A DNA stretch of 64,000 bases from Candidatus Aminicenantia bacterium. GTDB taxonomy: Bacteria > Acidobacteriota > Aminicenantia > UBA2199. Position 1 is the stretch's first letter, and every line of letters starts with the position of its first letter. Of this stretch, positions 1-18,673 are shown in pieces. The DNA lies in NCBI GenBank assembly GCA_965225955.1, contig CBDDBX010000043.1:61187-125186 (forward strand), in the 5' to 3' direction. Position numbers and translations under genes: made by a program. The notes beneath the pieces were generated by a model that was not told the origin of the DNA, searched no databases, and was given only the letters and a program-made list of their open reading frames with translations.

Positions 1-270
1 CGCAACATGAGCTTTAGTTCTGTATTCATATAATGTATCAAAGGTCTGCAGTTCCTTTTCCATTGCAGAAAAATAGTGCTCATAAGCTCCAATGACTGAA
101 ATTTTATCTGACAGAATCAGTTCACATCCCAGAGTTACATTTAATTTTTCGACCTCAGAAGTCCCCCACCCAATTCCACTAAATAGTTTTACAGGAATTT
201 CATCTGCTTTAACTGCAGTACTACTAAAAAATAAAACAGCAAAAACTGATATTAAAAATAATTTTTTCAA
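1..270 (-). CDS. Partial outer-membrane beta-barrel protein, fourth tandem paralog (OMP_b-brl-like), 3' end cut by the window edge
   Basis: Minus-strand translation from a TTG at 268-270, preceded by AAGGAGA, gives MKKLFLISVFAVLFFSSTAVKADEIPVKLFSGIGWGTSEVEKLNVTLGCELILSDKISVIGAYEHYF. It matches paralogs 344-895 and 1854-2381 motif for motif: signal peptide, GGIGxGxS, NVT, S-V-x-G-S/A-x-D/E-YFF. Not in the ORF track because it is partial. Confidence 0.5.
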   Translation of the reverse strand, partial: MKKLFLISVFAVLFFSSTAVKADEIPVKLFSGIGWGTSEVEKLNVTLGCELILSDKISVIGAYEHYFSAMEKELQTFDTLYEYRTKAHVA

Positions 271-343
271 AATACTCTCCTTGTTTCTATGATCAATTTT
301 TAAAAACTCTCAAGCCCGATTGCACCGTTACTACCTGTTTAAT

Positions 344-895
344 TCATAGATTACAACTAAACAGAGCATAGGTTTTCAGCCAGGAATAACCATTCCCGAC
401 ATTCACATCCATTCCTATCTGCAGGCCGGTTTTTCTACTCACATAAAAATCAAAGCCTACTCCTCCACACAGTCCGAATCCTTTTCTACTATCAATTTTT
501 GTACTCCAGGAATTTTCATTTATATGAGATATACGCTCTGACTTAAATTTAGAATATGCCAGGCCCGCCTTCATGAAAAAACTACCCCCCATCTTATATT
601 TCAGAGATGTTCCGATCACCCATGCCTCAGATTTATCTTCTATTTTGCTTATCTGTTCAGCATTTTTTTCTGTAACCGATTGTTCATCTTCGGGGGCAAA
701 AAAATAGTCAAAACTACCAACCACGGATATTTTCTTTGTTAGTTTAACTTCGCTACCCAAAGTTACATTGATATTTTTAAATTTCGAAGCCCCCCAGCCT
801 ATTCCTCCCAGAATGCTGACAGAGTTTTCCTCAGCTTTTAACCCAAAAGCTCCAACAAGCCAGATAGCAATAAATAAAACGATTAACTTTTTCAA
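344..895 (-). CDS. Small outer-membrane beta-barrel protein (OmpA-like beta-barrel domain family), paralog 1
   Basis: 183 aa. N-terminal signal peptide MKKLIVLFIAIWLVGAFGLKA. Alternating hydrophobic beta-strand pattern, GGIGWGAS and NVT motifs shared with the neighbours. TTG start preceded by GGAGGG. Confidence 0.7.
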   Translation of the reverse strand: MKKLIVLFIAIWLVGAFGLKAEENSVSILGGIGWGASKFKNINVTLGSEVKLTKKISVVGSFDYFFAPEDEQSVTEKNAEQISKIEDKSEAWVIGTSLKYKMGGSFFMKAGLAYSKFKSERISHINENSWSTKIDSRKGFGLCGGVGFDFYVSRKTGLQIGMDVNVGNGYSWLKTYALFSCNL

Positions 896-928
896 CTTTC
901 CCTCCTGTTCCTCATTTTATGACTAATT

Positions 929-1468
929 TCAGATGATCCTGACACAGAAATTTGTATAGAATTTCCACCAGGTAGATTGTCCTGCATCATAAACATCTAC
1001 GCCAAACCTTGAGCTCAACCTTTTGCTCAAAGGCAGATCCAGACCTATTCCGGCACTTACTCCAGCTTTTCTCGTTTTTACAATCTCACGATACTCCCTT
1101 TCCGGTTCCTGATACTCTTTTCTATGATATCTGTAAATAAACCCGGCTTTTGCAAAAAACAGCCGGCTAATCCTGTATTTACAAAATCCTCCCAGAGATA
1201 TAGCTTCAGTATCATCTTTCAAAACCACTATATTTCCTGACTGGTGTATCTCCTTACGTACACTGTTATCAGGATCTTTAAAGTAGTCCATTTCCATCAT
1301 TAGAGAGATTTTCCCTGTTAAAACAAGCTCTACCCCTCCTGTTACATTAAGGTTTTTACAATCTCCTGCGCCAAAACCCGCACCTCCATAAAGTTTCAAC
1401 TGAGTTTCTTCTGAACAGAGCACCATACTGGCAGTCAGAAGAAACAGAAAAACAATTAATTTTCTCAA
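929..1468 (-). CDS. Small outer-membrane beta-barrel protein, paralog 2
   Basis: Same family (GGAGFGAG, NVTGG, MEMDYF). The ORF-track start at 1498 is a TTG; the likely true start is the internal TTG at 1466-1468 preceded by AAGGAGG, giving MRKLIVFLFLLTASMVLCS as the signal peptide. Confidence 0.65.
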   Translation of the reverse strand: MRKLIVFLFLLTASMVLCSEETQLKLYGGAGFGAGDCKNLNVTGGVELVLTGKISLMMEMDYFKDPDNSVRKEIHQSGNIVVLKDDTEAISLGGFCKYRISRLFFAKAGFIYRYHRKEYQEPEREYREIVKTRKAGVSAGIGLDLPLSKRLSSRFGVDVYDAGQSTWWKFYTNFCVRII

Positions 1469-1640
1469 TATTTCCTCCTTTAAATTAATTTTCAACAAAT
1501 CAATATCTCATCTCTGGCTGCTGCAGAAAGGTCTATAAAAAGCTGCTTAAATCAGCTATTACTAACCTATCTGAATATTGAAAATCCCCTGCATCCTTTT
1601 AGCAGACAGGTAAAGATGAAAAATGGTTTATGCACGCAGC

Positions 1641-1787
1641 ATGCCAGTTAAAATGCGGCAATAAGTATATTTTATTTACAAAAAAAGGACACTGTGTCAC
1701 ATTTTAAAGTCATACAGTACAGACCATATCCCCTCAGAGTTCAGTTTCTGAGTATAACTTGCTTTATTCATGAAAATGGATAAAAAC
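1641..1787. repeat. Duplicated upstream element of about 150 bp, copy A (upstream of paralog 2)
   Basis: Near-identical (roughly 90%+) to 2488-2646. Contains the palindrome GACACTGTGTC (1688-1698) and a short hairpin. Confidence 0.8.
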
Positions 1788-1853
1788 ACTGAAACCTTTT
1801 AATAAAGGGCAGGAGATAATCCTGCCCCTTAACCATCATATTCTCAGATCACA

Positions 1854-2381
1854 TCATATTATACGAAACCCTATAGTCCCATAGAATTTAAGCCATGAAA
1901 ACATATCTGTTTTGCAGGTATCAACTCCAAACTGTAAATTTGTTTTTTTACCCAAAGGAAAATCAAGCCCTACTCCTCCACTTATTCCAGTATCCTTATA
2001 GGTAGCCGGAATACTCCAGGATTTAGTTCCTGTATCAAATAGATACTCCAGTTTATATCTGGAATAATTCACCCCTGCTTTAACAAAAAAAGGCCCTGCT
2101 AATTTATACTTCAGGTAGAGCCCCAGATAATAGGCATAAGAATCTACATCTCTCCCCTGTACCTTCTTTTCATTATCGGGACTAAAAAAATAATCGAAGC
2201 TGCCAATAACTGAAAACCTCTTCGTTACATTGAGTTCCCCCCCAACTGTTACATTGAAATTTCTAAAATCCGAGGCCCCCAGTCCTATACCACCAAAGAC
2301 CTTAACAACCATATTGTCCGCCTTTAAGCTTCCCCCTGCAAAAAATCCGATAAAAACGAATAGTACCAATAGTTTTTTCAA
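1854..2381 (-). CDS. Small outer-membrane beta-barrel protein, paralog 3
   Basis: 175 aa. Signal peptide MKKLLVLFVFIGFFAGGSLKA. GGIGLGAS, NVTVGG, SFDYFF. TTG start with GGAGGG SD, same start context as paralog 1. Confidence 0.7.
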   Translation of the reverse strand: MKKLLVLFVFIGFFAGGSLKADNMVVKVFGGIGLGASDFRNFNVTVGGELNVTKRFSVIGSFDYFFSPDNEKKVQGRDVDSYAYYLGLYLKYKLAGPFFVKAGVNYSRYKLEYLFDTGTKSWSIPATYKDTGISGGVGLDFPLGKKTNLQFGVDTCKTDMFSWLKFYGTIGFRII

Positions 2382-2487
2382 CTTTCCCTCCTGTCAATTA
2401 ATTTATTAAATACACATTCACTTATCCCCTTGTGGAACAGTAAACTGAACATGTACTTTCTATTTACATTGAACTTATACAAATCCT

Positions 2488-2646
2488 ATGCCAGTTAAAA
2501 TGTGGCAATAAGTATATTTTATTTACAAAAAAAGGACACTGTGTCACATTTTAAAGTCATGCAGTACAAACCATATCCGTTCAGAGTTCAGTTTTTGAAC
2601 ATAACTTGTTTTATTCATGAAAATGGATAAAAAAAAGTTGGAACCT
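2488..2646. repeat. Duplicated upstream element, copy B (upstream of paralog 3, immediately upstream of the + strand gene at 2690)
   Basis: Same sequence as 1641-1787 with a few substitutions. Palindrome GACACTGTGTC at 2535-2545. Confidence 0.8.
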
Positions 2647-2689
2647 TTCCCCTTTCCCTTCTGTTTAATTAGCCATAAAGGAGGTTCTA

Positions 2690-3721
2690 ATGTTAAGGAA
2701 ACTATTAATCGTATCATTAACTCTACTGGCGCCACTTCTTATCTCAGCCAGCGGGATACTGCTTCAGGACATTGTTAATCCCGGAAATATTGTAGTGGGA
2801 AACTCAAATATTTATATAACTCAGGACACAGATGTATTTATCTTTAAAAAAAACACCGGAGAGCTTATTAAAAAGTTCGGCAAACAGGGAGAAGGTCCCG
2901 GAGAATTCAGAAAGAGCCCTGCTCCCTGGATACCAAGCTTAACTATCTATTTAACGCCGGATAACAGACTACTAATCAACAGTATGGGCAAGGTCTCCTT
3001 TTTCACAGCAAGCGGTGAATTTATAAGTGAACATAAAGTTGGTGGGCGACTGGGCAGATTTATGCCTCTTGGTAAAGGTTATATAAAAATGACTATAGAG
3101 AGAGATGGAGATACCAGAGTTATTGCAGCCAATCTTATTGATGCAGACTTTAAAAAGACTTCCCGGCTGTTCAGCACACTCTGGCCTGCTCAGTCAGGAA
3201 AAAAAAGAAACCCAGTCATCATGTCACAGATGACAACTCTTTTCGATAAATATACCTGCGGAAAAGGAGTTGCTCTACCTGATGAGAAAGGTAATTTTCA
3301 CATATTTAATACAGAAGGTAAAAAAATTCTGAATTTCACTCCACCTTATACAAGAATCAAACCTGATAAAGCATTTCAGAACTCTCTGGACAAGTTCTTT
3401 TCTGAAGATCCCAGATACAAACGCCCTTATACTCAGGATAAAAACCGGGGCCTTATAGAACTCCCCTCCAGGCTACCCGAATACCGGGACTACCGAATTG
3501 ACGAAAACAATGTATATGTTATCTCAAACTTCAGAAAAGATGGTAAGTATGAAATGCTGGTTTACTCTCTTAATGGAAAAATGTTGAAAAAAACCTTTAT
3601 TCCTCTTGCTGAAAAAGATCTTTTAAATGTTTTTCCTTTTGATATAAGGGACGGAAAACTTTTTCAGGTTGTTACTGACGACGATGAGGAAGAGTGCAAA
3701 CTTGTAGTTAATAAAATATAG
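2690..3721 (+). CDS. Secreted hypothetical protein, possible beta-propeller (NHL-like GxGxGEF motif)
   Basis: 343 aa. Strong SD AAGGAGG. Signal peptide MLRKLLIVSLTLLAPLLISASG. FGKQGEGPGEF resembles NHL/propeller repeat signatures. No confident family. Confidence 0.55.
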   Translation: MLRKLLIVSLTLLAPLLISASGILLQDIVNPGNIVVGNSNIYITQDTDVFIFKKNTGELIKKFGKQGEGPGEFRKSPAPWIPSLTIYLTPDNRLLINSMGKVSFFTASGEFISEHKVGGRLGRFMPLGKGYIKMTIERDGDTRVIAANLIDADFKKTSRLFSTLWPAQSGKKRNPVIMSQMTTLFDKYTCGKGVALPDEKGNFHIFNTEGKKILNFTPPYTRIKPDKAFQNSLDKFFSEDPRYKRPYTQDKNRGLIELPSRLPEYRDYRIDENNVYVISNFRKDGKYEMLVYSLNGKMLKKTFIPLAEKDLLNVFPFDIRDGKLFQVVTDDDEEECKLVVNKI

Positions 3722-3753
3722 AGCGCCATATAATAAGTCTTCATTAAAAAAAG

Positions 3754-3780
3754 CCCGGCCTCTTTGTCAGAGCCGGGTTT
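3754..3780 (+). terminator. Putative rho-independent terminator after the 2690-3721 gene
   Basis: Hairpin AGCCCGGC ... GCCGGGTT (8-bp stem, 12-nt loop) followed by TTT; weak T-tail. Confidence 0.4.
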
Positions 3781-3928
3781 AACCTCACCTATCTTAATAT
3801 TTCCACTTAGAAAAATAACTTCTCAAAAAGAAGATACTGCAACCAGAGGCCGGGATTTTACGTTAATATTATTGTTCTCTTCTGATATAATAATTTTGTA
3901 CTAAACAGAGATACCCTGGTGGAGTTTT

Positions 3929-5338
3929 ATGATTAACAGATTCAGACTGACAATTGTTTTAAGAATATCACTTATCTTTCTCTTCATTACAGCCGCGGTA
4001 ATTGTATTCTTCAAAACAGATGACTACCTTACTCTGGCTGGAAGCGCAGTCCTCACTTTTCTTGCTGGCTATCAGTGCTACAGACTGATGGTTTTTGTAG
4101 AAAAAACAAACAGAGATCTTGCCAGATTTCTTGAAGCTGTCCGAAATGACGATTTTACCCAGAGTTTCTCTGACAACAATCTTGGCACCTCATTTGAAGA
4201 GCTTAAAAACGCCTTTACAAAGTTAAAAGAGCAGTTCCTTAGCCTCAGATCAGAGAAAGAAGAACACTCAAGATATCTGCAGACAGTCATAAAACATATT
4301 GGCGCCGGAATGATTGCATACAGAGGAGACGGGAAAGTTGAACTTATAAACGTTTCTGCACGAAAGCTTTTTCAGATCTCCCACCTTAAAAACATCAGGT
4401 CCCTTGAAAATATAAGCAGGGAGCTGGTGGAAAAACTGCTGACTATTAAAGCAGGAGAAACTGCTGCTCTGAAGATAGACAGTCCTGAAGGAGAGATGTA
4501 CTTATCAATTAATGCCACTCAGTTTAAACTGAAAAGTGGTTTTTATACCCTGGTTTCAATACAGAACATTAAAGATCAGATTGATATGGAGAACATGTCC
4601 CGGGAACTTGAAATCGCATGGGAAGTACAGAAATCACTTCTTCCCGGAGCACCTCCGTCAATTCCGGGTTACGATATCAGAGGGATCTGTAAACCAGCAA
4701 AAGAGGTAGGAGGAGATTATTACGATTTCATTCCTCTGGGAAATAACAGAACCGCTTTTATAATAGGAGATGTATCAGGGAAAGGCACATCTGCTTCATT
4801 CTACATGACTCTTACCAAAGGATTCATTCAGTCTACTCTCATGGAGGAAAACATCTCTCCCGGAGAGATTCTTAAAAGAGTAAACAGTCTTATGCTCAAT
4901 ACAATTAGTAAACGCTCATTTGTAACTATGTTCATAACTATTCTGGACTGGAAAGCAGGCACAGCAGTATGTGCCAGAGCTGGGCATAACCCGGGCATCT
5001 TTCATTCAGCTACCGGAAGAACAGAACATATAAAACCTGGTGGAATAGCCCTTGGTTTAGCAGGCAAGAAGAGTTTTGATACACCTCTTGAAGAGTACAG
5101 CTTTAAATTTGATATTAACGATCTTTTTGTAATGTATACAGATGGTTTCATAGAAGTAATGAACGATGATAACAATATCGAATTTGGAGAAAAAGGACTG
5201 GAAAAATGTATTGCACGAAGAGGAGATATGACCTCCAGTGATATTGTCAACAGAATCTGCGATGAAGTAGATAAATTCAACAGTTCAAGCGAACAGTATG
5301 ATGATATGACAATGATTTGTATCAGAAGAGTTTCCTGA
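3929..5338 (+). CDS. Membrane-anchored sensor protein with PP2C-type (SpoIIE/RsbU family) serine phosphatase domain
   Basis: 469 aa. N-terminal TM segment, HAMP-like coiled region, PAS-like middle. C-terminal SpoIIE-type motifs GDYYDF and FIIGDVSGKGTSAS, with DGF...D near the end. Confidence 0.8.
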   Translation: MINRFRLTIVLRISLIFLFITAAVIVFFKTDDYLTLAGSAVLTFLAGYQCYRLMVFVEKTNRDLARFLEAVRNDDFTQSFSDNNLGTSFEELKNAFTKLKEQFLSLRSEKEEHSRYLQTVIKHIGAGMIAYRGDGKVELINVSARKLFQISHLKNIRSLENISRELVEKLLTIKAGETAALKIDSPEGEMYLSINATQFKLKSGFYTLVSIQNIKDQIDMENMSRELEIAWEVQKSLLPGAPPSIPGYDIRGICKPAKEVGGDYYDFIPLGNNRTAFIIGDVSGKGTSASFYMTLTKGFIQSTLMEENISPGEILKRVNSLMLNTISKRSFVTMFITILDWKAGTAVCARAGHNPGIFHSATGRTEHIKPGGIALGLAGKKSFDTPLEEYSFKFDINDLFVMYTDGFIEVMNDDNNIEFGEKGLEKCIARRGDMTSSDIVNRICDEVDKFNSSSEQYDDMTMICIRRVS

Positions 5339-6576: not shown

Positions 6577-7947
6577 TTACCCTGCCTTAGCTCTTTTAAG
6601 CTGAACCAGACCACCGAAAACAAGGCGTCCGGTAATATCATCTCCTAAACCTTTACAGAGCTCAGAAAACCTGTCTCTGTTTATCTTTAACTCTATATCT
6701 TCTTCGCCAACTATTTCTGCATCTATAAAATCCGGTCCTTCAACTTTAATCTTTATACACCTTACCCCGACATTGAACTTTGCACTGTCATACCTTAATT
6801 TCAGACAGCTATCTGTAAATACTGTTCCCGGGCTGGCATTATACCAGGAGGGTAATGGATAATTTACATCCACCATAAGAGGTAACTTCAGATACCTTTT
6901 CTTATTCAGTTCTTCTACCCTTCTTTCAAACCCTTCTATTAAAGATTTCCCGAAGCCAGAGACTGTCCGGTACTCTCTTAGTTCGGGATTTATAACCAGA
7001 GCTCTCTTTAATACTGAATATATATAATCTGGTAATAACCCCGAAGCAATTTTTGTGAAGTAGTCAGAAAAATAACTCCCCGGCTCTGAAGGTTCAAGAA
7101 GATACTCCTCAGCAGCAGTTTCCCCAAGTATAAATTCAACAGCAATAACTGCCATAGCATATATATCTATAGAAAACTCTTTTCTGTAATCTTCAAACAG
7201 ATATCTTGCAGGATCGCTGTACATAGGAGTGCCTGCAACACTACTTCTGGTATGAGTCAGACAGGCAAGCTTCTCTTTGGCATTCCCAAAATCACCAAAT
7301 ACAAAAGATAATTTCCTACCCCGCTCTACAATAAAAATATTGGCGGGAGAAATATCTCTGTGCACTGTATCTTTATTGTGGATCTTCTCAAGTTTAAACA
7401 ACAGTTCTGAGATTATTTCAGATTTCCTGCTGAACTCTATGCTGCTGGTTCCGTTTGCCTCAAGACCTATAAGGTCCTTAAGAGTTCCTTCAGCAATTTC
7501 CATAAGAATACCGCCACACTCGTGTTCATTATTATCAGAAGTGCAGATAATCTTTCCTGCATAGAAGACCTTAAGAACCATATCATCATCAAGACCTTTT
7601 TCAGTGAGGGAATTTATAATAGATATCTCTTTATTAAGATATGTTGCTGAAGCATCCATCTCCTCTTCTATCTTACCGCTACAGGTAGTAAAGTACTGCT
7701 CAAAACTAAAAGGTACCTTAAGAGCGAATCTGTTACCTTCAGAACAGGTTACTTCGAACACTGTACCAAGCCCACCTTTCCCCAGAAACCCTGTTATTCT
7801 GAAAAGCCTGCCTTCCAGCTTTATACTGGTGCAGCTAACCTCATAACCATCCGGGAAATCCCTCTTTTGTTCTATCTCAAAAGAATCTGAAGACTGGCAG
7901 TCGTTTATGTTCGCTTCGATTGTTCTGCAACTTCTGCAATATTTCAT
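6577..7947 (-). CDS. Eukaryotic-like Ser/Thr protein kinase with N-terminal Cys ribbon and C-terminal domain of unknown function
   Basis: 456 aa. CRSCR at the N-terminus. Kinase motifs GKGGLGTVF, ALK, HRDISPANI, GDFGNA, and AGTPMYSDP (APE-like). About 170 C-terminal residues unassigned. Confidence 0.85.
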   Translation of the reverse strand: MKYCRSCRTIEANINDCQSSDSFEIEQKRDFPDGYEVSCTSIKLEGRLFRITGFLGKGGLGTVFEVTCSEGNRFALKVPFSFEQYFTTCSGKIEEEMDASATYLNKEISIINSLTEKGLDDDMVLKVFYAGKIICTSDNNEHECGGILMEIAEGTLKDLIGLEANGTSSIEFSRKSEIISELLFKLEKIHNKDTVHRDISPANIFIVERGRKLSFVFGDFGNAKEKLACLTHTRSSVAGTPMYSDPARYLFEDYRKEFSIDIYAMAVIAVEFILGETAAEEYLLEPSEPGSYFSDYFTKIASGLLPDYIYSVLKRALVINPELREYRTVSGFGKSLIEGFERRVEELNKKRYLKLPLMVDVNYPLPSWYNASPGTVFTDSCLKLRYDSAKFNVGVRCIKIKVEGPDFIDAEIVGEEDIELKINRDRFSELCKGLGDDITGRLVFGGLVQLKRAKAG

Positions 7948-8516
7948 CAGAAAGATACCCCCAGATATAAAAACCTCTGCCTTAACAGGCGATTGCTTTC
8001 TGATTGAAACTTATAACCGCGAAAAGGCCACTCATATTTATATCCCAGTTGAACATACAGCCTCCTGCTTACCGGAACCCTTACTCTCAGATCCCCATAA
8101 AGTGCCAGCTGGTATATCAGATTGTCTTTAAAATACTCTTCAGTACTACTTTTTTTAAATGGATAAATTATACCGCTCATACCAGCAGAACACTCAAACC
8201 TCACTCTTCCTGCACCAACAGATACAACTTTTCCAAATTCCAGCCCTACACCATCAAGCTGTAAATCTGCTTCTTCTGAATTAACAGCTGAACTCTGACC
8301 TTTTATTCTGTTATAGATGATAGAGATTTCATATCCGTTTTCTGTGAAGATTCCACCTTTGAGTCTGAAACCGCTGAACTTATCTGCAACGGAACTACTA
8401 CCCGAAGAGCTATAATCCCTCAAAGAGCAACTGCTTTTCACTGAAGTAGTTATAGAAGTAAAGACATCCGGCAACCCGATAGCAGGCAAAAGCAGCAGTA
8501 GAATCATCAATCTCAT
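7947..8516 (-). CDS. Putative small outer-membrane beta-barrel protein
   Basis: 189 aa. Signal peptide MRLMILLLLLPAIG. Amphipathic alternating strands. C-terminal YLGVSF with terminal Phe. Overlaps its neighbours by 1-4 bp. Confidence 0.5.
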   Translation of the reverse strand: MRLMILLLLLPAIGLPDVFTSITTSVKSSCSLRDYSSSGSSSVADKFSGFRLKGGIFTENGYEISIIYNRIKGQSSAVNSEEADLQLDGVGLEFGKVVSVGAGRVRFECSAGMSGIIYPFKKSSTEEYFKDNLIYQLALYGDLRVRVPVSRRLYVQLGYKYEWPFRGYKFQSESNRLLRQRFLYLGVSF

Positions 8517-9577
8517 TGAACTGCCTCTGAACTATATTCCAGAAATATTTTTGAAGAAGCATCTGTAATCAACCCCTTAAGTAATCGATTATGCTCCACC
8601 GCATCATCTATTACAACTCTTCTACTCACCTTCCTGACCTTTTTTCTGAAGGATTTAATAAATTCTACAACTCCTTTTACTGATAAACCGGCTCCAAGAA
8701 CCATTGTTGTACCACCAGCACCCTCCATAAAAGCTCTGTTTCCTCCACTGATATTCCTATTATCAAGTCTTCTGTCTATTACAAATCTATTGACTCCAAT
8801 AAGACCGGCCCCCACAATAAAATGTGGCAGAGCCTTACGAAAGAATCTCCTTTTATCAAAATACTTTTCCTGTACTATCTCTGTTTCATACCTGAACTCT
8901 TTTCTGTAACTCCTGCCAGCCAGACTTATCTCTGAAGTTTTCCAGTTAACCAGAATATTATCCGGCATAACTACTCTTCGTCTTACCGGAACATCTCTGT
9001 TAAATTCGATTCTGTCAGTTTTGAACCGGAAATTGATATTCTTCTCAGGCACCTTGAAATGAGGCATCTCAACATTAACAGAGTTGTCTCCTTTCTGCAG
9101 AAAAAAGACCTTTCCCGCAGATCTTCCATCAACAAAAACCTGAAGCTCTGCAGATGCAGTTGTTTTTACCCTGAACCTGAGAACTACTTTTCCTTCATTA
9201 TATGGATATCTGTTACGGTTAAGTTTCACAGATACTTCAGAAGGATAATTTTTCTTCCATGAAACCATAAATTCATGAACTCTTATTCTGCTGATACTAT
9301 CCAGAAAACCCAGTTCCACCTGACCTTTGGTATCCTGAAAATATCTGGTTATACACCTTTTTTCATTTACCTTATCCTCAACCCTGCAGTATAACCATGC
9401 AAGGAGAAGTATCCTGCTTTTATAATCTCTTTCGCGATATTCACCACTTTCTATGAATTTTATATAACCTGAATAATCTTTAACTTTACCCAGATAATCC
9501 CCCGCAGCATCTTTCCAGCTATCAACACTACTTCCATAGCAGCATAATCCCGGAATAAGAAACAACAAAAATCTCAC
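8513..9577 (-). CDS. Secreted hypothetical protein
   Basis: 354 aa. Signal peptide MRFLLFLIPGLCCYGSS. C-proximal Gly-rich hydrophobic stretch and basic tail. No recognisable domain. Confidence 0.5.
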   Translation of the reverse strand: MRFLLFLIPGLCCYGSSVDSWKDAAGDYLGKVKDYSGYIKFIESGEYRERDYKSRILLLAWLYCRVEDKVNEKRCITRYFQDTKGQVELGFLDSISRIRVHEFMVSWKKNYPSEVSVKLNRNRYPYNEGKVVLRFRVKTTASAELQVFVDGRSAGKVFFLQKGDNSVNVEMPHFKVPEKNINFRFKTDRIEFNRDVPVRRRVVMPDNILVNWKTSEISLAGRSYRKEFRYETEIVQEKYFDKRRFFRKALPHFIVGAGLIGVNRFVIDRRLDNRNISGGNRAFMEGAGGTTMVLGAGLSVKGVVEFIKSFRKKVRKVSRRVVIDDAVEHNRLLKGLITDASSKIFLEYSSEAVQ

Positions 9578-9585
9578 AATCCCCC

Positions 9586-10191
9586 CTATAATTTATTAAC
9601 AATAAGATAAAATCCAAGTTTATCTTTAAACTTAACAAGAGTCTCTTCCGATACCGGAGTACTACTCCATCCTCCTCCCTCTTTATAAGCCAGACATAGC
9701 TCTCCATGGCTCTTACTGAGAAGCATTCTGTTAACACCAGTATCTTTTAATCTCTTCAGCCTGTCTACTGAGAGGATATCAAAACCATACCCTTCTCTAT
9801 TACGCAGAAATATTCTGAGAGTACTGAAAGAGTCAAACCCCATCTCTTTAAGATAGACAGGCTCTTCAGATATCCAGCTATTCTTACCTGACTCCCTGCA
9901 CTTTATACCACCTGCAAAAGATCTGACTGGTGACTTTGAAGAGATCACAGTTTTTACAGCAGGTTCAGAAACAGCATCAAAATCCATTTGCCCTTCAGTT
10001 AATCTGCATAATGATTCTGATACTGTACGCCCCACAACCCTGTATCGCCCTCTCTTAATACCCTTCTTAAATACGACCCCTTCCAGTGGAACACTTCCTG
10101 TTACAATAAAGAAATTACCTCTTTTACCGTAAATCTTCCCACCCCACAGACAGGTGGACGAATACAACAGAAGAATCAGAACAACTCTCAT
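9586..10191 (-). CDS. Secreted hypothetical protein
   Basis: 201 aa. Signal peptide MRVVLILLLYSSTCLWG. No recognisable domain. Confidence 0.5.
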   Translation of the reverse strand: MRVVLILLLYSSTCLWGGKIYGKRGNFFIVTGSVPLEGVVFKKGIKRGRYRVVGRTVSESLCRLTEGQMDFDAVSEPAVKTVISSKSPVRSFAGGIKCRESGKNSWISEEPVYLKEMGFDSFSTLRIFLRNREGYGFDILSVDRLKRLKDTGVNRMLLSKSHGELCLAYKEGGGWSSTPVSEETLVKFKDKLGFYLIVNKL

Positions 10192-12730: not shown

Positions 12731-13840
12731 CTATTTCTTCTCCATCATAATATTTACAACTCTTCCCGCAAGTCCCTTATAACGAAGGCTGCCCATATTG
12801 GCAATTACAACAATAACTGCTTCCTTTCTGGGGTAGACTCTGAAATATGTTGTTCCACCTACAGAGCCGCCGCCATGACCGGTAAAGACTCTCCCTTTAG
12901 AATCTCTGCCTACATTCCAGCCGATTCCATAATTGGTGGATTTACCATCTGAAGTTTTCTGGGGAGTCCACAAGGAAACAACCGTTTTTCTGCTGACAGT
13001 TTTTGGATAGATATGGCCGAAACCAAAACGTATAAGATCTTCAGCTGTTGAGAGGAAGCCTCCACCAGCCCATTTATAGCTATTATCAACAAAAGGAGCA
13101 TTAACAATTTCCCCGTTTCTGAGCATATAATAACGACTTCTGTTCTTAATAATCGGTGTTATATGATCTGCAAAGGTGGATTTCATACCAAGAGGTTTAA
13201 AAACCTTCTCTTTCATAAAAGAGAGGAATTCTTCGCCGGAGGCATTTTCCATTACTGCACTAATAAGATTCCAGCCGTAACTGGTATAGGAATAACGTGT
13301 TCCCGGTTCAAACATCAAAGGATCATCCTTAAAGATATCAAGTCCCTCTTTTACAGTTGGATAATATCCGCTACTGAGGAATTCTTTCCCCTTATAATGC
13401 CTTATACCCGCCAGATGACCTCCAAGCTGTCTGGTGGTTATCTTATATCTCTTTTTTGGGAAATAAGGTACGTAATCTCTTACATCCCGATCCAGGTCCA
13501 GTTTTTTGTTTTCAACAAGCACACCCAGTCCGTAAGCAGTAATAGGCTTTGATACACTACCAATTCTGAACAGTGTTACTGCAGGATTCACTTTCACATT
13601 CTGTTCCAGATCTGCATATCCATAACCAGCTGACCAGACAATCTTTCCCTTCTCACCGTAAGCGATTGCAAGACCACTTACTTTATTATTCTTCATGAAC
13701 TCTTTTACTACTTTATCTGCTTTTGAAATAGCGGCCTTACTATTACAGTATACCGGGGTACCCAGTAAAACTATAAATCCCAGTAAAACCAGACTAACTA
13801 TTGCTCTCTTCTTCACAACTCTCCTCCTTTTTTTCCTCAC
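12731..13840 (-). CDS. Serine hydrolase, beta-lactamase / PBP4-like family
   Basis: 369 aa. Signal/TM start. SxxK motif SVSK, class-C-like Y-x-N region, GHGGGSVGG. Confidence 0.8.
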   Translation of the reverse strand: MRKKRRRVVKKRAIVSLVLLGFIVLLGTPVYCNSKAAISKADKVVKEFMKNNKVSGLAIAYGEKGKIVWSAGYGYADLEQNVKVNPAVTLFRIGSVSKPITAYGLGVLVENKKLDLDRDVRDYVPYFPKKRYKITTRQLGGHLAGIRHYKGKEFLSSGYYPTVKEGLDIFKDDPLMFEPGTRYSYTSYGWNLISAVMENASGEEFLSFMKEKVFKPLGMKSTFADHITPIIKNRSRYYMLRNGEIVNAPFVDNSYKWAGGGFLSTAEDLIRFGFGHIYPKTVSRKTVVSLWTPQKTSDGKSTNYGIGWNVGRDSKGRVFTGHGGGSVGGTTYFRVYPRKEAVIVVIANMGSLRYKGLAGRVVNIMMEKK

Positions 13841-14498
13841 ATTTTATCCAGTAGAGACAATACTGCTGTTCTCTCTCATTAACTCTCATAGAGATCTCTT
13901 TTTTATCACAATCATGCCCTTCAACACAGTACTTACCATTGAAATTAACACACTCGTAGCACCAGGTTCTGAACATTGGATCATTTTCAACCTCTTTAAG
14001 AAACTTTATCTTCTGGCTTTCAATAAAAGCCCTCTCTTCATCTTCTTTATTATCTCCTTTTATAATCTTACTGGCATGATAGAACCCCGCAATTGTAGCA
14101 ATGAAAACACCTATTGTAAAAGGAATTGTATACCCTGCAAGCTTCACCCATCCAATCCAGGTCACAGAATTTATCAGAAGAATAATGGCTATATCTATAA
14201 GAGTCAGGAAATTAAAACGCCTTTTTATAAAGAATATAAAAATCAGAGCATAAGCTAGAACCCCTGCAAACATATTTATAAAGATTGAAGCAAAATATGC
14301 TGAAGGAATAACAAGTAAGCCGGTTTTAACCACTTTCATAAGATCGTGATGCAGGGAAAGATTTCTGTTTTCACCGGGGAACTGGTAACAGACGTATTTA
14401 ATACCCAGTACAGTGGTATAGTTGTGAATAACAAAAAACATGATATTCAGAAACAGATACGCAGCACCGGACATTAAATAATTATACCCAAATCCCAC
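13794..14498 (-). CDS. Integral membrane protein with Cys-rich acidic C-terminal tail
   Basis: 234 aa. About five predicted TM helices. Tail WCYECVNFNGKYCVEGHDCDKKE...CEEKKEESCEEE. Its 3' end overlaps the annotated beta-lactamase start by about 47 bp. Confidence 0.5.
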   Translation of the reverse strand: MGFGYNYLMSGAAYLFLNIMFFVIHNYTTVLGIKYVCYQFPGENRNLSLHHDLMKVVKTGLLVIPSAYFASIFINMFAGVLAYALIFIFFIKRRFNFLTLIDIAIILLINSVTWIGWVKLAGYTIPFTIGVFIATIAGFYHASKIIKGDNKEDEERAFIESQKIKFLKEVENDPMFRTWCYECVNFNGKYCVEGHDCDKKEISMRVNEREQQYCLYWIKCEEKKEESCEEESNS

Positions 14499-14645: not shown

Positions 14646-15197
14646 TTAATCAGGCAAACCAATTCGTGACAAAAAATTTGCAAATCTTAACGATATTTGT
14701 TCTCTATATATTTCTGAGACTTTACACATAAATTCCTTTTTCTTTACTTTATTCAAATAGTTAACATTTACTGCAAAGTAATGCTTAAAATCAATTACTG
14801 AAGGCACTACAGGAATAGTATCAGGGAATTTTAAATAGTGATATCTTGGATCGGTGTTTTTCAGTAAATTCTTGTGAGGTGTCTTGTTCTTTTTAAATGA
14901 ATTCATGTTTCTACCGATTTCCGACAGTTGAGACCCTTCTAAAACGTGATCAACGTTATAAATAGGAGCGACTAATACAGAAAGTAAATGTTTATCCTGA
15001 TTACTGTTTTCCTTATTACGAGCATTGTAATCTTGAGCTAAATCACAAGCTTGAGTAAGCACTATAACCAAAGGAAATAAGATTTTAGAGATTTCTATGT
15101 TTCCTGATTTCTCATAAACACTTTCTATCCACTCAACATTTCTTATTATATCTCCTTGAGATAAAAATTTTTCACGTTTTTTCTTTACTTTAATCAT
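14646..15197 (-). CDS. Hypothetical protein, island gene 3 of 3
   Basis: 183 aa. 8-bp overlap with the upstream 62-aa ORF (translational coupling). No recognisable domain. Confidence 0.5.
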   Translation of the reverse strand: MIKVKKKREKFLSQGDIIRNVEWIESVYEKSGNIEISKILFPLVIVLTQACDLAQDYNARNKENSNQDKHLLSVLVAPIYNVDHVLEGSQLSEIGRNMNSFKKNKTPHKNLLKNTDPRYHYLKFPDTIPVVPSVIDFKHYFAVNVNYLNKVKKKEFMCKVSEIYREQISLRFANFLSRIGLPD

Positions 15198-15378
15198 GAG
15201 ATATTTTAGCTCTTAATATGATTCTTTTAGGTTTATTTATGCCGTATCTTTTCTCTTCTACATTTAAACTTTCAGGAGCCTCTGTTTCTGAAATATTTAA
15301 TTTCACCAAATTATTTTCATTTGATACTCTAGTAACCTCATCAGAGTTAAAATAATCTGAATCAGTATAATTATTCAC
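15190..15378 (-). CDS. Small acidic hypothetical protein, island gene 2 of 3
   Basis: 62 aa. Overlaps both neighbours by 8 bp, typical of coupled operon members. Low-complexity acidic N-terminus. Confidence 0.35.
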   Translation of the reverse strand: MNNYTDSDYFNSDEVTRVSNENNLVKLNISETEAPESLNVEEKRYGINKPKRIILRAKISHD

Positions 15379-16126
15379 TCCTGGTCACCTGCATTTTGTT
15401 TCTCAAAGATTCAGTAATAGATAGTTCAAATAGATCTAAAATACGTCTATGAGCTTTTTCAAAAGTTTTTTTTATATCGCTATATTCCAATACGCCTTGA
15501 CATGAAGCATCATAATCAAGAATAAAAGTTTTTTTTCTAATATTTGATGGATAATCAGGGTTATGCATACCGTATTGGAAATTAAGAGTCATGCCATCAT
15601 CAAAACGATTTACTATATTTGAGAAGGCTCTCGAAATCACATCTTGATTTTCATTAAATTTTAACATACCTAAAAGGTTGGGATTTATATATTCATCCCA
15701 ATAAAATGGCCTCTCTTCATTAAGATCAATCTTATTTATATATCTCAATCCAAATCTATTAATTGAAAACTCTTCGACCTCCATCAATATCTTTGATATC
15801 TCCGACAAATCATTTTTAAGCTTACTCAATCTTTCATATTTATTTACTGAAATCGAGAAACAATTAGAGGAAATAGTCAAAGTCTTCTCTTTATCTTTGC
15901 CATGGTATAGCCATTCTGTCTTCTCAGTTACTGTTTTGCTTGCCTCAACATCTGAAATCATTATTTCATTAGAAATGACATTTCTCGGTTCAGGTATTGG
16001 AAAAGATTTTAAAATAATATCTGCCGCATTTTTAGGCATGGTTTTATCTGCCGCTTTATATGGAGCAGTGAAGTCAACACGTAAAATCACTTTATCTAAG
16101 AACGATTTTTTATACAATTTTGCCAT
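15371..16126 (-). CDS. Hypothetical protein, island gene 1 of 3
   Basis: About 251 aa. Likely start MAKLYKK at 16126 with AAGGA SD (ORF-track start 16141 has none). No confident family. Confidence 0.55.
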   Translation of the reverse strand: MAKLYKKSFLDKVILRVDFTAPYKAADKTMPKNAADIILKSFPIPEPRNVISNEIMISDVEASKTVTEKTEWLYHGKDKEKTLTISSNCFSISVNKYERLSKLKNDLSEISKILMEVEEFSINRFGLRYINKIDLNEERPFYWDEYINPNLLGMLKFNENQDVISRAFSNIVNRFDDGMTLNFQYGMHNPDYPSNIRKKTFILDYDASCQGVLEYSDIKKTFEKAHRRILDLFELSITESLRNKMQVTRSE

Positions 16127-16242
16127 TTTATTTCCTTTCATATTAATATAATAAATACATTGTAGATCATATAATTTTGAAAAAAAACCTGATTATATAA
16201 AAAAGTTAGAATGAATTTCGCACTTGGTATACTTCACACAAT

Positions 16243-16282
16243 TTAATCATAACTCAACTTAATCATAACTCAACATTTGACA
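16243..16282. promoter_or_regulatory. Perfect tandem 16-bp direct repeat (TTAATCATAACTCAAC x2) abutting a consensus -35 box TTGACA in the divergent intergenic region
   Basis: 16243-16258 and 16259-16274 are identical. TTGACA at 16277-16282, about 110 bp upstream of the HD-protein start. Confidence 0.45.
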
Positions 16283-16390
16283 TTTATAGCTCATTTATCT
16301 ATTCTTAATTCATCCAGAGCAAATCCATTTTTTTGGATAAGATTGGTTTATAAGAATTATATTTAAACAAAAACAATTAGGAGTTATGAG

Positions 16391-18562
16391 ATGGACAGAA
16401 ACCCATGGCTAGATGACACGTTTAACGTAAGACTGCATGACATAAAAAAAAGAGTTCTTGACGAACATAAAAAATCAAAAGCACCAGAACTTAAATGGTT
16501 TACACCACATGGTGAAGAACATTACAAGAATGTAGAAATGAGATTAATGCAACTATTACCTGAATGTAATGATTTATCAGTAAATGAAAAATTTTTCCTA
16601 TTAACTTCGGCATGGATTCACGATTTGGGAATGATAAAAGGGATTTTAGATGGAGATGAACAACTTGATAGTTATGAAATAAGAGATAAGCACCACATCA
16701 GATCAGAACAATACATAGTTAAAAATCACGAATTCCTAGATATAGAAGAGACCGAAAAAGAAGCTTTTGCAATGTTAGCCAGATACCACAGACGTAGAGA
16801 GTTGATTACACAATGTGAAGAATCAATGACACTTCCTTATCATGGCAACATAAGAATACAGTTATTAGCAGCATACCTCAGACTAGCCGATGCCTTACAC
16901 ATAGATCAAACAAGAGCACCCTTTCAACAATATGCAATTGTTCTTGCGTACAACATTCCAATTAATTCTAAATTACACTGGTTAAGAAGTATGTTTGTGC
17001 TCGGAATATCAATAAATTTAAAAAACAAAGAAATTGTTGTTCAATTAAAATATCCGAATGACATAAAAGAATGGGATCAGGACGAAAGAGTCCTTAATTC
17101 AACTCTTGATAGTATATACGATTCTATTGTTCAGGATCTTGAAGAAGAACTTGCTACTGTTAAAGAGATATTAATAAAGGGCGGTCAGTCTTACATCTTA
17201 TCTATCAGAAAAGAGATAGTAAAAGTGAGATTTGACAAAAGCTTCAAAAGAGATATCAAAACAGTTTTAAATTATTACTATTTATTTGATAATCCAAGTA
17301 GCTCAGCATTATGCCGGTTAGTAATTGAATCAATTAGAGGAATACGAGATGCACACAATGGTAATATAAGGGAATCCATATCCACAATTTCAGATTTCCT
17401 CAACGAGATAAAAAAGAAAATACTTGATACAAGAACATGTCATACTGGCTTAAGTGATTTGGTAAAAAGTGTAGAGGAACATGTAAAAAAGCAAGGTGTT
17501 GAGGGATTGGACAAGAAGTTAGCAAAAGATGAAAAAAAGTTAAACAATGAAAGAAATGGTGTACGTGAAAATGCAAGAGAGTTTTTTGATATATTTCAAA
17601 AAAAGAACCCCAAAAAGCTAGCACAGAATAACAAAGTAAACATATTACTTTATGGTTATAGTGAATTAGTAATTAAATCCCTATGTGGTTTTAGAGATGC
17701 AATTATACAAAAAAAACTTAAAGATAAACTAAATGATAATATAAAAGCTCATAAACTAAACCTTGAACATGAAGCAAATAATAATTTCAGAATTTTTATA
17801 TGCGAAGGTCAACCCAAAAACAAAACAACATGGGGAGGAAAGTATTTATATCATGATGGTTTTAGATATGCTATTTCTTTAGCAGAAAGAAATTTTGAAT
17901 ATATATATATGATAGCTGATGCTACTGCTGGCTCATTAATTGCACGAGCGAATAACAGTTCATTTCCCCCAATAGATTTCATAATGGTAGGAGCTAATGG
18001 ATTTACTGAGAAAGAATTTAAACACTCTGCAGGACACAGTACAATTGCAGCTCTGAAATTTTTACCTAACAATAAAAAAGACTATCCTAAACTTATTCTA
18101 TCAATAATAAATAGTAAACATAATGAATCAGAGGATAAAAAGGAAGATAATAATAAAAATGACCTGAACAATGCTGATGACAGAGAGACAGTTCCTATCG
18201 ATGGCTGGACATTTAAAACCCCTTTTAATGGTGAACCAACAAGAAATAATATATTCGTCACTCAGGATCCAAAATATAAAAAAGATATGGATAACTTCAA
18301 AAATGCAATCGCAATATATAATCCTAGAGAAGATGCTATTCCAATTGATTGGGTAGACATAGTCATTTCAGAAAACGTTTGGCTCAAAAACACGGGTAAG
18401 GAATCATGGGGAGGCAGATATATTGTAGAACAAAAACAATCATCTTCAGAGCCTTATTGCTCTCTTAATAGTTATAGGAAAATACTTTTTTATAGAAATA
18501 AAAAGAGACAAATAACTCTTAGGCACTCTATCCAGCAATCTAGGTTGGTGGCAAGAAACTGA
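16391..18562 (+). CDS. HD-domain phosphohydrolase fused to an IF-2B / MtnA / R15P-isomerase-like (NagB/RpiA-fold) domain; unusual architecture
   Basis: 723 aa, AGGAG SD. N-terminal HD motifs HGEEH, WIHDLGM, KHH, YHRRRE, ADALHID. Lys-rich coiled middle. C-terminal third aligns by eye to the IF-2B family: ILLYGYSELVIKSL (cf. ILTHCNSSTVLKAL), FRIFICEGQP (cf. FRVIVTETRP), IADATAGSLI (cf. ITDSAVGYFM), IDFIMVGANGFTEKEF (cf. VDxVIVGADxIxxNGxVxNK). A further 160 aa are unassigned. Confidence 0.7.
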   Translation: MDRNPWLDDTFNVRLHDIKKRVLDEHKKSKAPELKWFTPHGEEHYKNVEMRLMQLLPECNDLSVNEKFFLLTSAWIHDLGMIKGILDGDEQLDSYEIRDKHHIRSEQYIVKNHEFLDIEETEKEAFAMLARYHRRRELITQCEESMTLPYHGNIRIQLLAAYLRLADALHIDQTRAPFQQYAIVLAYNIPINSKLHWLRSMFVLGISINLKNKEIVVQLKYPNDIKEWDQDERVLNSTLDSIYDSIVQDLEEELATVKEILIKGGQSYILSIRKEIVKVRFDKSFKRDIKTVLNYYYLFDNPSSSALCRLVIESIRGIRDAHNGNIRESISTISDFLNEIKKKILDTRTCHTGLSDLVKSVEEHVKKQGVEGLDKKLAKDEKKLNNERNGVRENAREFFDIFQKKNPKKLAQNNKVNILLYGYSELVIKSLCGFRDAIIQKKLKDKLNDNIKAHKLNLEHEANNNFRIFICEGQPKNKTTWGGKYLYHDGFRYAISLAERNFEYIYMIADATAGSLIARANNSSFPPIDFIMVGANGFTEKEFKHSAGHSTIAALKFLPNNKKDYPKLILSIINSKHNESEDKKEDNNKNDLNNADDRETVPIDGWTFKTPFNGEPTRNNIFVTQDPKYKKDMDNFKNAIAIYNPREDAIPIDWVDIVISENVWLKNTGKESWGGRYIVEQKQSSSEPYCSLNSYRKILFYRNKKRQITLRHSIQQSRLVARN

Positions 18563-18649: not shown

Positions 18650-18673
18650 GCAGTTTTTTGGTGCGAAACTGCC
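18650..18673. terminator. Possible bidirectional terminator between the HD-fusion gene and dctA
   Basis: GCAGTTT ... AAACTGC 7-bp stem, modest T-rich flanks. Confidence 0.35.

Follow-up and report, generated by a model that had tools for sequence, protein, structure and literature searches.

Immunity that works by depleting nucleotide pools has lately come to the fore, as exemplified by SAMHD1, the bacterial dGTPase, Clover and PUA-Cal-HAD, and few of the predicted effectors have a known trigger ligand. A comparative-genomics study by Nicastro, Burroughs, Iyer and Aravind (2023, NAR 51:11479) reportedly describes the HD-CE class as nucleotide-degrading immune effectors. In the account given in PMC12871103, which cites Nicastro et al. 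2023, CE stands for conflict effector, and the class is predicted to target nucleotide pools and is defined by its immune contexts. HD-CE (PF24391) was defined by computational prediction, and no biochemical or phage-challenge data on it were found in the searchable literature. Experiments have established that the related Calcineurin-CE depletes dNTPs once activated by its ligand (PMC12871103). In PUA-Cal-HAD, a PUA-like sensor that binds m6-dAMP is fused to a calcineurin-like CE phosphoesterase, which acts with a separate HAD partner and depletes nucleotides upon ligand binding (PMC12871103). HD-fold immune depleters of nucleotide pools that are subject to allosteric control by nucleotides, at sites within the HD protein, include SAMHD1, the bacterial dGTPase and the Clover HD dNTPase CloA, the last of these described in PMC12265719.

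In this work we have analysed a 64-kb window (the whole stretch of DNA under study), in which an AT-rich island of about 4 kb carries a gene for a 723-aa protein arranged divergently from three tightly coupled small genes, a low GC content being common to all four (Table 1). The initial annotation of this DNA had proposed a single defence or toxin system with an architecture not previously described. It was right in recognising an HD/IF-2B fusion, a foreign islet and a conflict gene, whereas neither the single system nor the novelty of the architecture stood up to the analysis. Our preferred reading, in which we have moderate confidence, is that the islet consists of two independent, horizontally acquired conflict modules, an HD/IF-2B effector and a MazF-fold toxin–antitoxin (TA)-like cassette, and that their adjacency is probably due to chance or to defence-island clustering.

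Table 1. Features of the island and its borders (positions in the window).
Feature	Position	Strand	Evidence
HD-CE / IF-2B-like fusion gene (723 aa), stand-alone	16391..18562	+	ORF list
HD-CE phosphohydrolase domain, residues 36-224	16496..17062	+	Pfam match
IF-2B/MtnA/R15P-isomerase-fold domain, about residues 296-680; proposed ligand-sensing module	17276..18430	+	
Divergent intergenic region, 249 bp; promoter-like sites facing both modules and a 16-bp tandem repeat	16142..16390	.	
TIGR04255-family gene, cassette gene 1; 256 aa (251 aa from second ATG)	15371..16141	-	
62-aa protein gene, antitoxin position; 8-bp overlap with each neighbour	15190..15378	-	
MazF/CcdB-fold protein gene, 183 aa; putative toxin/effector	14646..15197	-	
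Terminator-like hairpin separating the HD gene from the convergent transporter gene	18650..18672	+	Consensus scan only

Our results show that the trio and the HD gene are independent modules. When loci of HD homologs were searched by tblastn with the trio, none of the 27 from other genomes contained its genes, and the sole matches fell on the source genome's own contig (L001). Reciprocally, no HD homolog was present within 6 kb of any of the 94 trio loci, and each module was found alone in many phyla. Nor was there any recurrent neighbour of the HD homologs, or any recurrent extra neighbour of the trio cassette. The three-gene operon had been assigned to the same system as the HD gene, with conserved co-occurrence of the four genes in other genomes suggested as a check, and no such linkage was found. 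The four genes adjoin, they face a common divergent control region with its tandem repeat, and both modules are low in GC, as would be expected if the HD-IF-2B protein worked with the trio in a single defence or toxin system; because the linkage is missing elsewhere, this model is effectively refuted and we hold it to be extremely improbable. For annotation purposes, the four genes should not be counted as one system.

The islet is compositionally foreign, as had been supposed: in 18 of 19 loci the HD gene has a higher AT content than its flanks, the mean difference being 8.4 points, and the same holds for the cassette in 27 of 28. The 64-kb window contains no tRNA genes, and no convincing direct or inverted repeats flank the island, the repeat pairs around it being all short, imperfect and AT-rich. 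An Rfam scan of the island gave sub-threshold chance matches only. PADLOC-DB v2.0.0 had no match for the trio or for the neighbouring membrane protein, and its sole match to the HD protein was a weak one to HamA (E 0.0046). No experimental work on either module was found in the searchable literature.

The N-terminal part of the 723-aa protein is an HD-CE domain, matching PF24391 with 103.8 bits, well above the Pfam cutoff of 27 (E 1.7e-29), and the profile search also found HD-CE in all 59 relatives. All the HD catalytic residues are kept: the metal/catalytic positions H40, H77-D78 and D167 are invariant in 59 sequences, and so are H44, E49, H101 and H133. More than 150 homologs, 690–990 aa long, were found, and the family is sporadically distributed, with a patchy presence in Acidobacteriota, SAR324, Thermodesulfobacteriota, Bacillota, Bacteroidales, Caldisericaceae, Nitrospirota and others; a search of viral contigs gave no homolog. 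When full-length proteins were collected by their IF-2B-like domain only, 58 of 59 carried HD-CE, which makes HD-CE plus IF-2B the obligate core architecture. Some relatives have in addition an N-terminal Mrr_cat, Trypsin_2 or Metallophos (calcineurin) domain. The statement that no described system has this architecture is not supported, since its HD part is a named Pfam family and the fusion comprises about 310 clusters at 50% identity. Full-text searches on HD-CE/PF24391 and on defence proteins combining eIF2B-type and HD domains returned nothing relevant.

With respect to the C-terminal domain, the window protein scores 16.4 bits against IF-2B (PF01008), below the gathering cutoff of 22.4; individual relatives reach up to 83.6 bits, and the match is found at E <= 0.01 in 29 of the 59 relatives and at E <= 1e-4 in 46 of the 59 full-length proteins retrieved via the IF-2B-like domain. 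In the AlphaFold model of the 723-aa protein (pLDDT 85.7), structure comparison identifies the two-subdomain IF-2B/MtnA fold, a sugar-phosphate-binding fold, with the enzyme-like archaeal members 1vb5, 1t9k and 3a11 as closest structures, so that the proposed fusion of an HD hydrolase to such a module is borne out. The family carries (Y/F)GYS and GAN motifs, with N536 of GAN shared by 58 of 59 sequences; in second-tier members, YGYS and GAN stand at canonical spacing. We take these to correspond to the canonical isomerase motifs THCNS, with the catalytic Cys, and GAD, with the catalytic Asp; no canonical IF-2B gene for alignment was present in the 1.05 Mb of retrieved DNA. Unlike the described IF-2B family (MtnA, ribose-1,5-bisphosphate isomerase, aIF-2B-like proteins and eIF2B alpha/beta/delta), this domain thus appears to be without the isomerase Cys/Asp pair, having Tyr/Gly and Asn at those positions. 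It differs from that family also in its fusion to an HD hydrolase and in lying outside a methionine-salvage or AMP-pathway context. The polar residues that are conserved include a Cys beside a conserved Glu, K476, D510, H545, H549, K576 and R618, and the domain keeps a strongly conserved basic ligand pocket.

From the apparent loss of the isomerase Cys/Asp pair, which favours a ligand sensor, we infer a sensing and oligomerisation role for the IF-2B-fold domain. We propose that the HD-CE metal-dependent phosphohydrolase is the effector, which would cleave phosphate linkages of free nucleotides, and that the C-terminal IF-2B-fold domain, to which it is permanently tied, serves as sensor and oligomerisation scaffold. 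This second domain may bind a phospho-ribosyl or sugar-phosphate ligand whose level rises on infection or stress; binding would switch on the HD domain, and the resulting nucleotide depletion would lead to an abortive or dormancy-type outcome. The protein is thus a predicted single-protein nucleotide-targeting immune effector, its substrate, ligand, direction of regulation and any anti-phage role being predicted with it. By analogy, its logic would be that of PUA-Cal-HAD, a small-molecule sensor fused to a CE phosphoesterase, with an IF-2B-fold instead of a PUA-like sensor, an HD instead of a calcineurin-like effector, and no conserved partner gene. In contrast to SAMHD1, dGTPase and CloA, regulation would come from a separate domain, and the protein matches no PADLOC dGTPase model, its closest HD folds being not dGTPases but GppA/PPX domain III, HD-GYP, PgpH and PDEs.

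The invariant Cys by Glu, D510, H545 and H549 would fit a new catalytic site just as well. It would then be conceivable, if unlikely in our opinion, that the protein is a two-enzyme cascade, in which HD-CE cleaves a nucleotide and a catalytic IF-2B-fold (neo)isomerase irreversibly converts the ribose-phosphate product; the unusually conserved polar pocket and the proximity to enzyme-like archaeal structures are consistent with this, and there is a demonstrated precedent in PUA-Cal-HAD, which degrades nucleotides in two successive steps (PMC12871103). Such an arrangement, itself rather improbable, would parallel the succession of HAD and Calcineurin-CE, or the archaeal route from AMP through R15P to RuBP.

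What is the role in vivo of the HD-CE/IF-2B effector that we propose? Its homologs lie in some cases near SIR2-HerA, GAPS4 and NERD-UvrD, or near PLD and IS elements, and in a further case the gene is inserted, with an N6/N4 methylase and HigBA, between glyQS and recO; WYL, MADS, Cas3-like and IetA matches were also found among the neighbours. Several loci (L036, L039) have housekeeping neighbours only, with no defence genes near the HD homolog, and the association with defence genes is a qualitative one, assessed without a control set. As judged from its sequence context, the module behaves as a mobile conflict gene, and the earlier view of it as conflict- or defence-like, and not housekeeping, is supported by its HD-CE membership, sporadic spread, AT-richness, neighbours and additional domains. 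The H..HD..H..H..D pattern and the nearest folds, however, fit a signalling-nucleotide phosphodiesterase as well as an NTP-depleting enzyme. The protein could in that case be a non-immune, accessory regulatory phosphodiesterase tuned by a sugar-phosphate metabolite and acting on (p)ppGpp, cyclic di-/oligonucleotides or polyphosphate-linked nucleotides, for which the loci with housekeeping neighbours only and the lack of a viral-contig homolog and of a PADLOC model would also speak. We consider this quite unlikely: the gene has a patchy distribution over the phyla and an AT content consistently above that of its flanks, it is found inserted between conserved housekeeping genes and adjoining TA and restriction–modification genes, its relatives include fusions to an Mrr nuclease, a trypsin-like protease or a calcineurin domain, and the class, as PMC12871103 presents it, is defined by immune contexts.

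The second module was compared with type II (MazEF, Kis-Kid, CcdAB), type III (ToxIN, CptIN, AbiQ) and tripartite toxin–antitoxin–chaperone systems. Its first gene product matches TIGR04255 (NCBIfam) over nearly its full length, with 113.3 bits, the curated cutoff being 30 (E 1.6e-32), whereas sequence searches of Pfam, PADLOC and PDB gave no match; PHROGs offered only a weak, function-unassigned family, and the full-text literature held nothing relevant on TIGR04255. Of the 71 loci with enough upstream DNA, 69 have a TIGR04255 gene directly upstream in the cassette with the MazF-fold gene. A small ORF of 55–98 aa occupies the antitoxin position in all 79 loci, and has a conserved F-S-x-E-Y motif at the N-terminus, an acidic, Ser/Thr-rich and variable middle, and a conserved (K/R)YGxSKP(K/R)R(I/V)IIRAKI motif at the C-terminus. 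For the small acidic protein, the best reading is that it belongs to a separate MazF-fold cassette, where it occupies the antitoxin position, and that it does not partner the HD protein. The 183-aa product of the last gene is modelled as the SH3-like barrel of MazF/CcdB; neither it nor its family profile has a Pfam (PemK/CcdB), NCBIfam or PDB sequence match, and the family, which numbers over 1,000 clusters, is recognised by no current sequence model.

The conserved small cognate gene upstream, with its 8-bp overlaps, gives the gene order of type II TA systems, and the order of the cassette is the same in Marinobacter, Bacillota, metagenomes and Methanosarcina. On these data the module is, in all appearance, a widespread three-gene TA-like cassette built around a MazF-fold protein. 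The barrel and the translationally coupled small gene that precedes it recall MazEF and CcdAB, and like other TA systems the cassette is a mobile and AT-rich unit that is at times carried by phages, homologs of the 183-aa gene occurring on 7 viral contigs. In contrast to MazF/PemK, the toxin candidate has no sequence-level match, and it is about 70 residues longer, with a highly conserved C-terminal helix. To our knowledge, no described MazEF system has a counterpart of the obligatory TIGR04255 first gene. Our current hypothesis is that the last gene of this translationally coupled cassette codes for a toxin of the MazF/CcdB fold, which probably acts as an endoribonuclease; that the 62-aa protein, with its acidic, probably disordered middle and conserved basic C-terminal strand, is the antitoxin; and that an obligatory third component is supplied by TIGR04255, which as a regulator, sensor or modifier would govern release of the predicted toxin. 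The roles could also be distributed otherwise, the enzymatic or effector function residing in TIGR04255 and the MazF-fold protein being a nucleic-acid-binding or adaptor subunit, in which case there would be no classical toxin–antitoxin system. We think this improbable, although the invariant polar motifs of TIGR04255 (GLRYxN, GMHNPDYP and LDYD) suggest catalysis, and the extra residues of the 183-aa protein and its lack of a MazF/PemK sequence-model match are in line with it.

Taken jointly, the two modules may have a wider meaning, which we put forward tentatively: the IF-2B fold could represent an unrecognised class of immune sensor that gates nucleotide depletion by an HD effector in the same polypeptide, and the trio a new, very widespread tripartite TA/abortive-infection family. 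The danger metabolite sensed might then be ADP-ribose-derived, PRPP/R15P-like or a modified-nucleotide product, a suggestion that is speculative. It is likewise possible, if somewhat doubtful, that the trio is common to bacteria, archaea and some phages, with a TIGR04255 sensor or modifier controlling a MazF-fold toxin. If true, TIGR04255 would thereby be assigned a function for the first time; the trio offers the first functional handle on this long-standing, "sporadically distributed" orphan family. As the HD-CE/IF-2B protein combines a sugar-phosphate-type pocket and an effector in one polypeptide, the small molecule that signals infection becomes directly testable with a single protein.

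Within the divergent region, consensus matches alone define a promoter-like TTGACA-17-TATTCT at 16277-16305 (+) and a TTGAGT-16-TATGAT at 16273-16246 (-). The tandem repeat (16239-16274) has 2.2 copies of its 16-bp unit with a 95% match, and a GGAG is placed 7 nt 5΄ of the ATG of the HD gene.

Four open reading frames lie between ordinary genes of the Candidatus Aminicenantia contig: one flank encodes an M24 peptidase, a protein of the beta-lactamase family and a membrane protein, and the other carries an SDF/DctA transporter gene followed by uvrC among its ordinary genes. Three of them, hereafter module B or the trio, follow one another with an 8-bp overlap between each successive pair in the ORF map of the window, and a 249-bp spacer separates them from the divergent gene of a 723-aa protein, hereafter module A or the HD gene. 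Our sliding GC scan gave 0.28-0.34 over ~14.3-18.5 kb and 0.38-0.44 in the DNA to either side, and the per-gene values were 0.320 for the HD gene and 0.299 for the trio, with 0.394 for the whole window. The ORFs, their overlaps, the divergent arrangement and the low-GC block were all found where the initial annotation, made by eye from the sequence, had placed them.

Features of the islet and its surroundings in the window
Feature	Position	Strand	Basis
183-aa gene (MazF-fold)	14646-15197	-	ORF
62-aa gene	15190-15378	-	ORF
256-aa gene (TIGR04255)	15371-16141	-	ORF
723-aa gene (HD-CE/IF-2B-like)	16391-18562	+	ORF
16-bp tandem direct repeat	16239-16274		
234-aa membrane protein	13794-14498	-	
Kinase/PP2C-like operon	6577-10191	-	

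That annotation had also proposed that the four genes act as a single defence or toxin system, a proposal that our searches do not support, since the expected linkage was absent. In tblastn searches the trio proteins had no match at 27 loci of other genomes that carry a homolog of the HD gene, matching only the window genome's own contig, and none of 94 trio loci had an HD homolog within 6 kb. The juxtaposition in the window is a two-module islet.

The 723-aa protein matches the Pfam family HD-CE (PF24391) over residues 36-224 (E 1.7e-29) and, below threshold, IF-2B (PF01008) over residues 329-661 (E 0.0056), nearly the full model being covered. A homolog search recovered more than 150 proteins of ~690-990 aa with the identical layout, many of them with a precomputed PF01008 match; in an alignment of 59 members the HD-CE match was present in 59/59 and the IF-2B match in 29/59 at E <= 0.01 (best 6.8e-11), and the AlphaFold model derived from this alignment was confident (pLDDT 85.7, pTM 0.83). 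Because of these family matches and of the confident model, the segment-by-segment recognition of an IF-2B fold proves to have been correct, although the domain, at approximately residues 300-680, is larger than first described. The fold and the likely biological arena of the protein had been read essentially right. When the profile of the C-terminal domain alone was run against 1.84 billion representative proteins, 310 matches were obtained at E <= 1e-3, of which 258 reached E <= 1e-10. Among 59 full-length matches sampled across the score range, 58 carried HD-CE and 46 had PF01008 at E <= 1e-4; the pairing of HD-CE with the IF-2B-like domain is obligate. In a few relatives there is a third, N-terminal domain, namely a Mrr-type restriction endonuclease, a trypsin-like peptidase or a calcineurin-like phosphoesterase, which are typical effector domains of conflict systems, and therefore the HD-CE/IF-2B core is combined with additional effector domains. 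Relatives with such an addition are P0418, P0452, P0410 and P0117, none of them in the window.

In the family alignment, the HD residues H40, H44, E49, H77-D78, H101, H133 and D167 are invariant, and therefore the hydrolase is very probably active. The IF-2B part has its own invariant or near-invariant residues (S424, K476, D510, G534, N536, G537, H545, H549, K576, R618, N644 and E647), the majority of which are also kept in a second tier of far more divergent relatives. The module A family has '(Y/F)GYS' and 'GAN G...GH(S/T)AGH', as against the canonical 'THCNS' and 'GAD...NG...NKxGT', and the canonical motif spacing is kept in second-tier members that are themselves strong PF01008 matches. 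We take the 'THCNS' and 'GAD' positions to be those of the catalytic Cys and Asp of MtnA and R15P isomerase, which are C160/D240 in the B. subtilis enzyme and C133/D202 in that of T. kodakarensis. On this motif-based mapping, the loss of both residues would speak for a domain that binds a ligand and against an isomerase. Profile searches from the module A family reached none of the solved IF-2B chains, and no canonical IF-2B gene was found in the DNA of the loci compared.

What could such a protein do? Nicastro et al. in 2023 are said to have defined HD-CE, Calcineurin-CE and PRTase-CE together. Module A belongs to HD-CE, a named class of immune effectors predicted by computation, and the earlier statement that no system of such architecture had been described was too strong. 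'CE' stands for conflict effector, according to a preprint of 2026 that deals with the PUA-Calcineurin-CE-HAD system (PMC12871103); it presents the class as predicted effectors targeting nucleotide pools and credits it to Nicastro, Burroughs, Iyer and Aravind (2023, NAR 51:11479). A sensor-fused Calcineurin-CE was shown experimentally to deplete dNTPs upon ligand binding (PMC12871103), and CloA, an HD dNTPase, is turned on by some nucleotides and inhibited by others (PMC12265719, preprint). Together, Calcineurin-CE and CloA give the mechanism of module A its best template: by analogy, the IF-2B-fold domain would be a sensor of a small molecule and would gate the HD-CE effector, with a substrate and a ligand that we infer. 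The interest of module A lies in this obligate IF-2B-type partner domain and its putative role. Relatives of the IF-2B-fold domain bind ribose and sugar phosphates.

The HD homolog gene is usually solitary, with long spacers on either side, and no recurrent neighbour was found among 27 loci. At L004 (10250-18187), clearly a multi-system defence island, the homolog lies directly upstream of SIR2-HerA, GAPS4 (PDDEXK_GAPS4 + GAPS4b_N) and a NERD-UvrD helicase; one locus has PLD and IS elements, at one an N6/N4 methylase and HigBA separate glyQS from recO, and other loci have housekeeping neighbours only. PADLOC models found among 96 pooled neighbours from 16 loci were WYL, MADS (mad3, mad8), Cas3-like, SIR2, HerA and IetA; in this qualitative, uncontrolled survey the association with defence genes is suggestive. 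Members of the family occur sporadically in many phyla, the gene is AT-richer than the flanks in 18/19 loci (by 8.4 points on average), and a search of IMG/VR viral contigs gave no homolog.

Module B is an unnamed, very widespread MazF-fold cassette. Its 256-aa protein is a full-length member of TIGR04255 (E 1.6e-32), a family for which the cassette supplies context. The 183-aa protein had no sequence-family match in Pfam, PADLOC or NCBIfam, with its family profile as query too; its homologs form more than 1,190 clusters at ~60% identity, from hosts that include Marinobacter, Bacteroidota, Bacillota, Electrothrix and Methanobacterium, and 7 viral contigs also have a homolog. Conservation of the cassette was followed at the 94 loci with a homolog of the 183-aa gene. 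Of the 71 loci whose upstream DNA was long enough, 69 have a TIGR04255 gene directly upstream, at a distance of ~150-290 nt, and this gap is filled by an ORF of 55-98 aa in all 79 testable loci. Both ends of the small protein are conserved, with F-S-x-E-Y as the N-terminal motif and (K/R)YGxSKP(K/R)R(I/V)IIRAKI as the C-terminal one, whereas the middle is variable, acidic and rich in Ser/Thr. The order is identical in Methanosarcina barkeri (250, 86 and 206 aa), no fourth gene recurs with the trio, and in 27/28 loci the AT content of the cassette exceeds that of the flanks. The organisation is that of a mobile module of the toxin-antitoxin type to which an obligatory third component has been added; the small protein occupies the antitoxin position, and its acidic stretch would fit a MazE-like inhibitor.

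In Marinobacter (L029, CP138917, 2470-6555) an IS21-family element (IstA/IstB) splits the TIGR04255 gene and leaves the small and MazF-fold genes intact, and the otherwise identical contig L030 has an intact TIGR04255 gene; the insertion is a natural inactivation of the first gene of the cassette. The two loci with no detectable TIGR04255 gene upstream, L090 and L124, may represent variants in which another protein is the first component. The M. barkeri trio (L127, CP009530, 2002-6604) adjoins a Mrr_cat/NA-iREase1 nuclease gene, a methyltransferase and an HD_4 protein, in what may be a small archaeal defence islet.

Within the divergent spacer of the window, the repeat CAACTTAATCATAACT (2.2 copies, 95% match) is directly upstream of the best promoter-like site of the HD gene and overlaps the promoter-like site of the minus strand. 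The repeat may serve as a local operator, but it is no evidence that modules A and B are functionally coupled. The 234-aa membrane protein is of the multi-pass kind, its C-terminal tail is rich in Cys, and the GC of its gene (0.357) lies between those of island and flanks; it had no match in Pfam, NCBIfam, PADLOC or PHROGs and does not adjoin the trio at other trio loci. Upstream of the island, in an operon at window 6577-10191 and, on this genome's own contig L001, at 1-4164, several further proteins of 119-351 aa without a family accompany a Ser/Thr protein kinase and a PP2C-like phosphatase.
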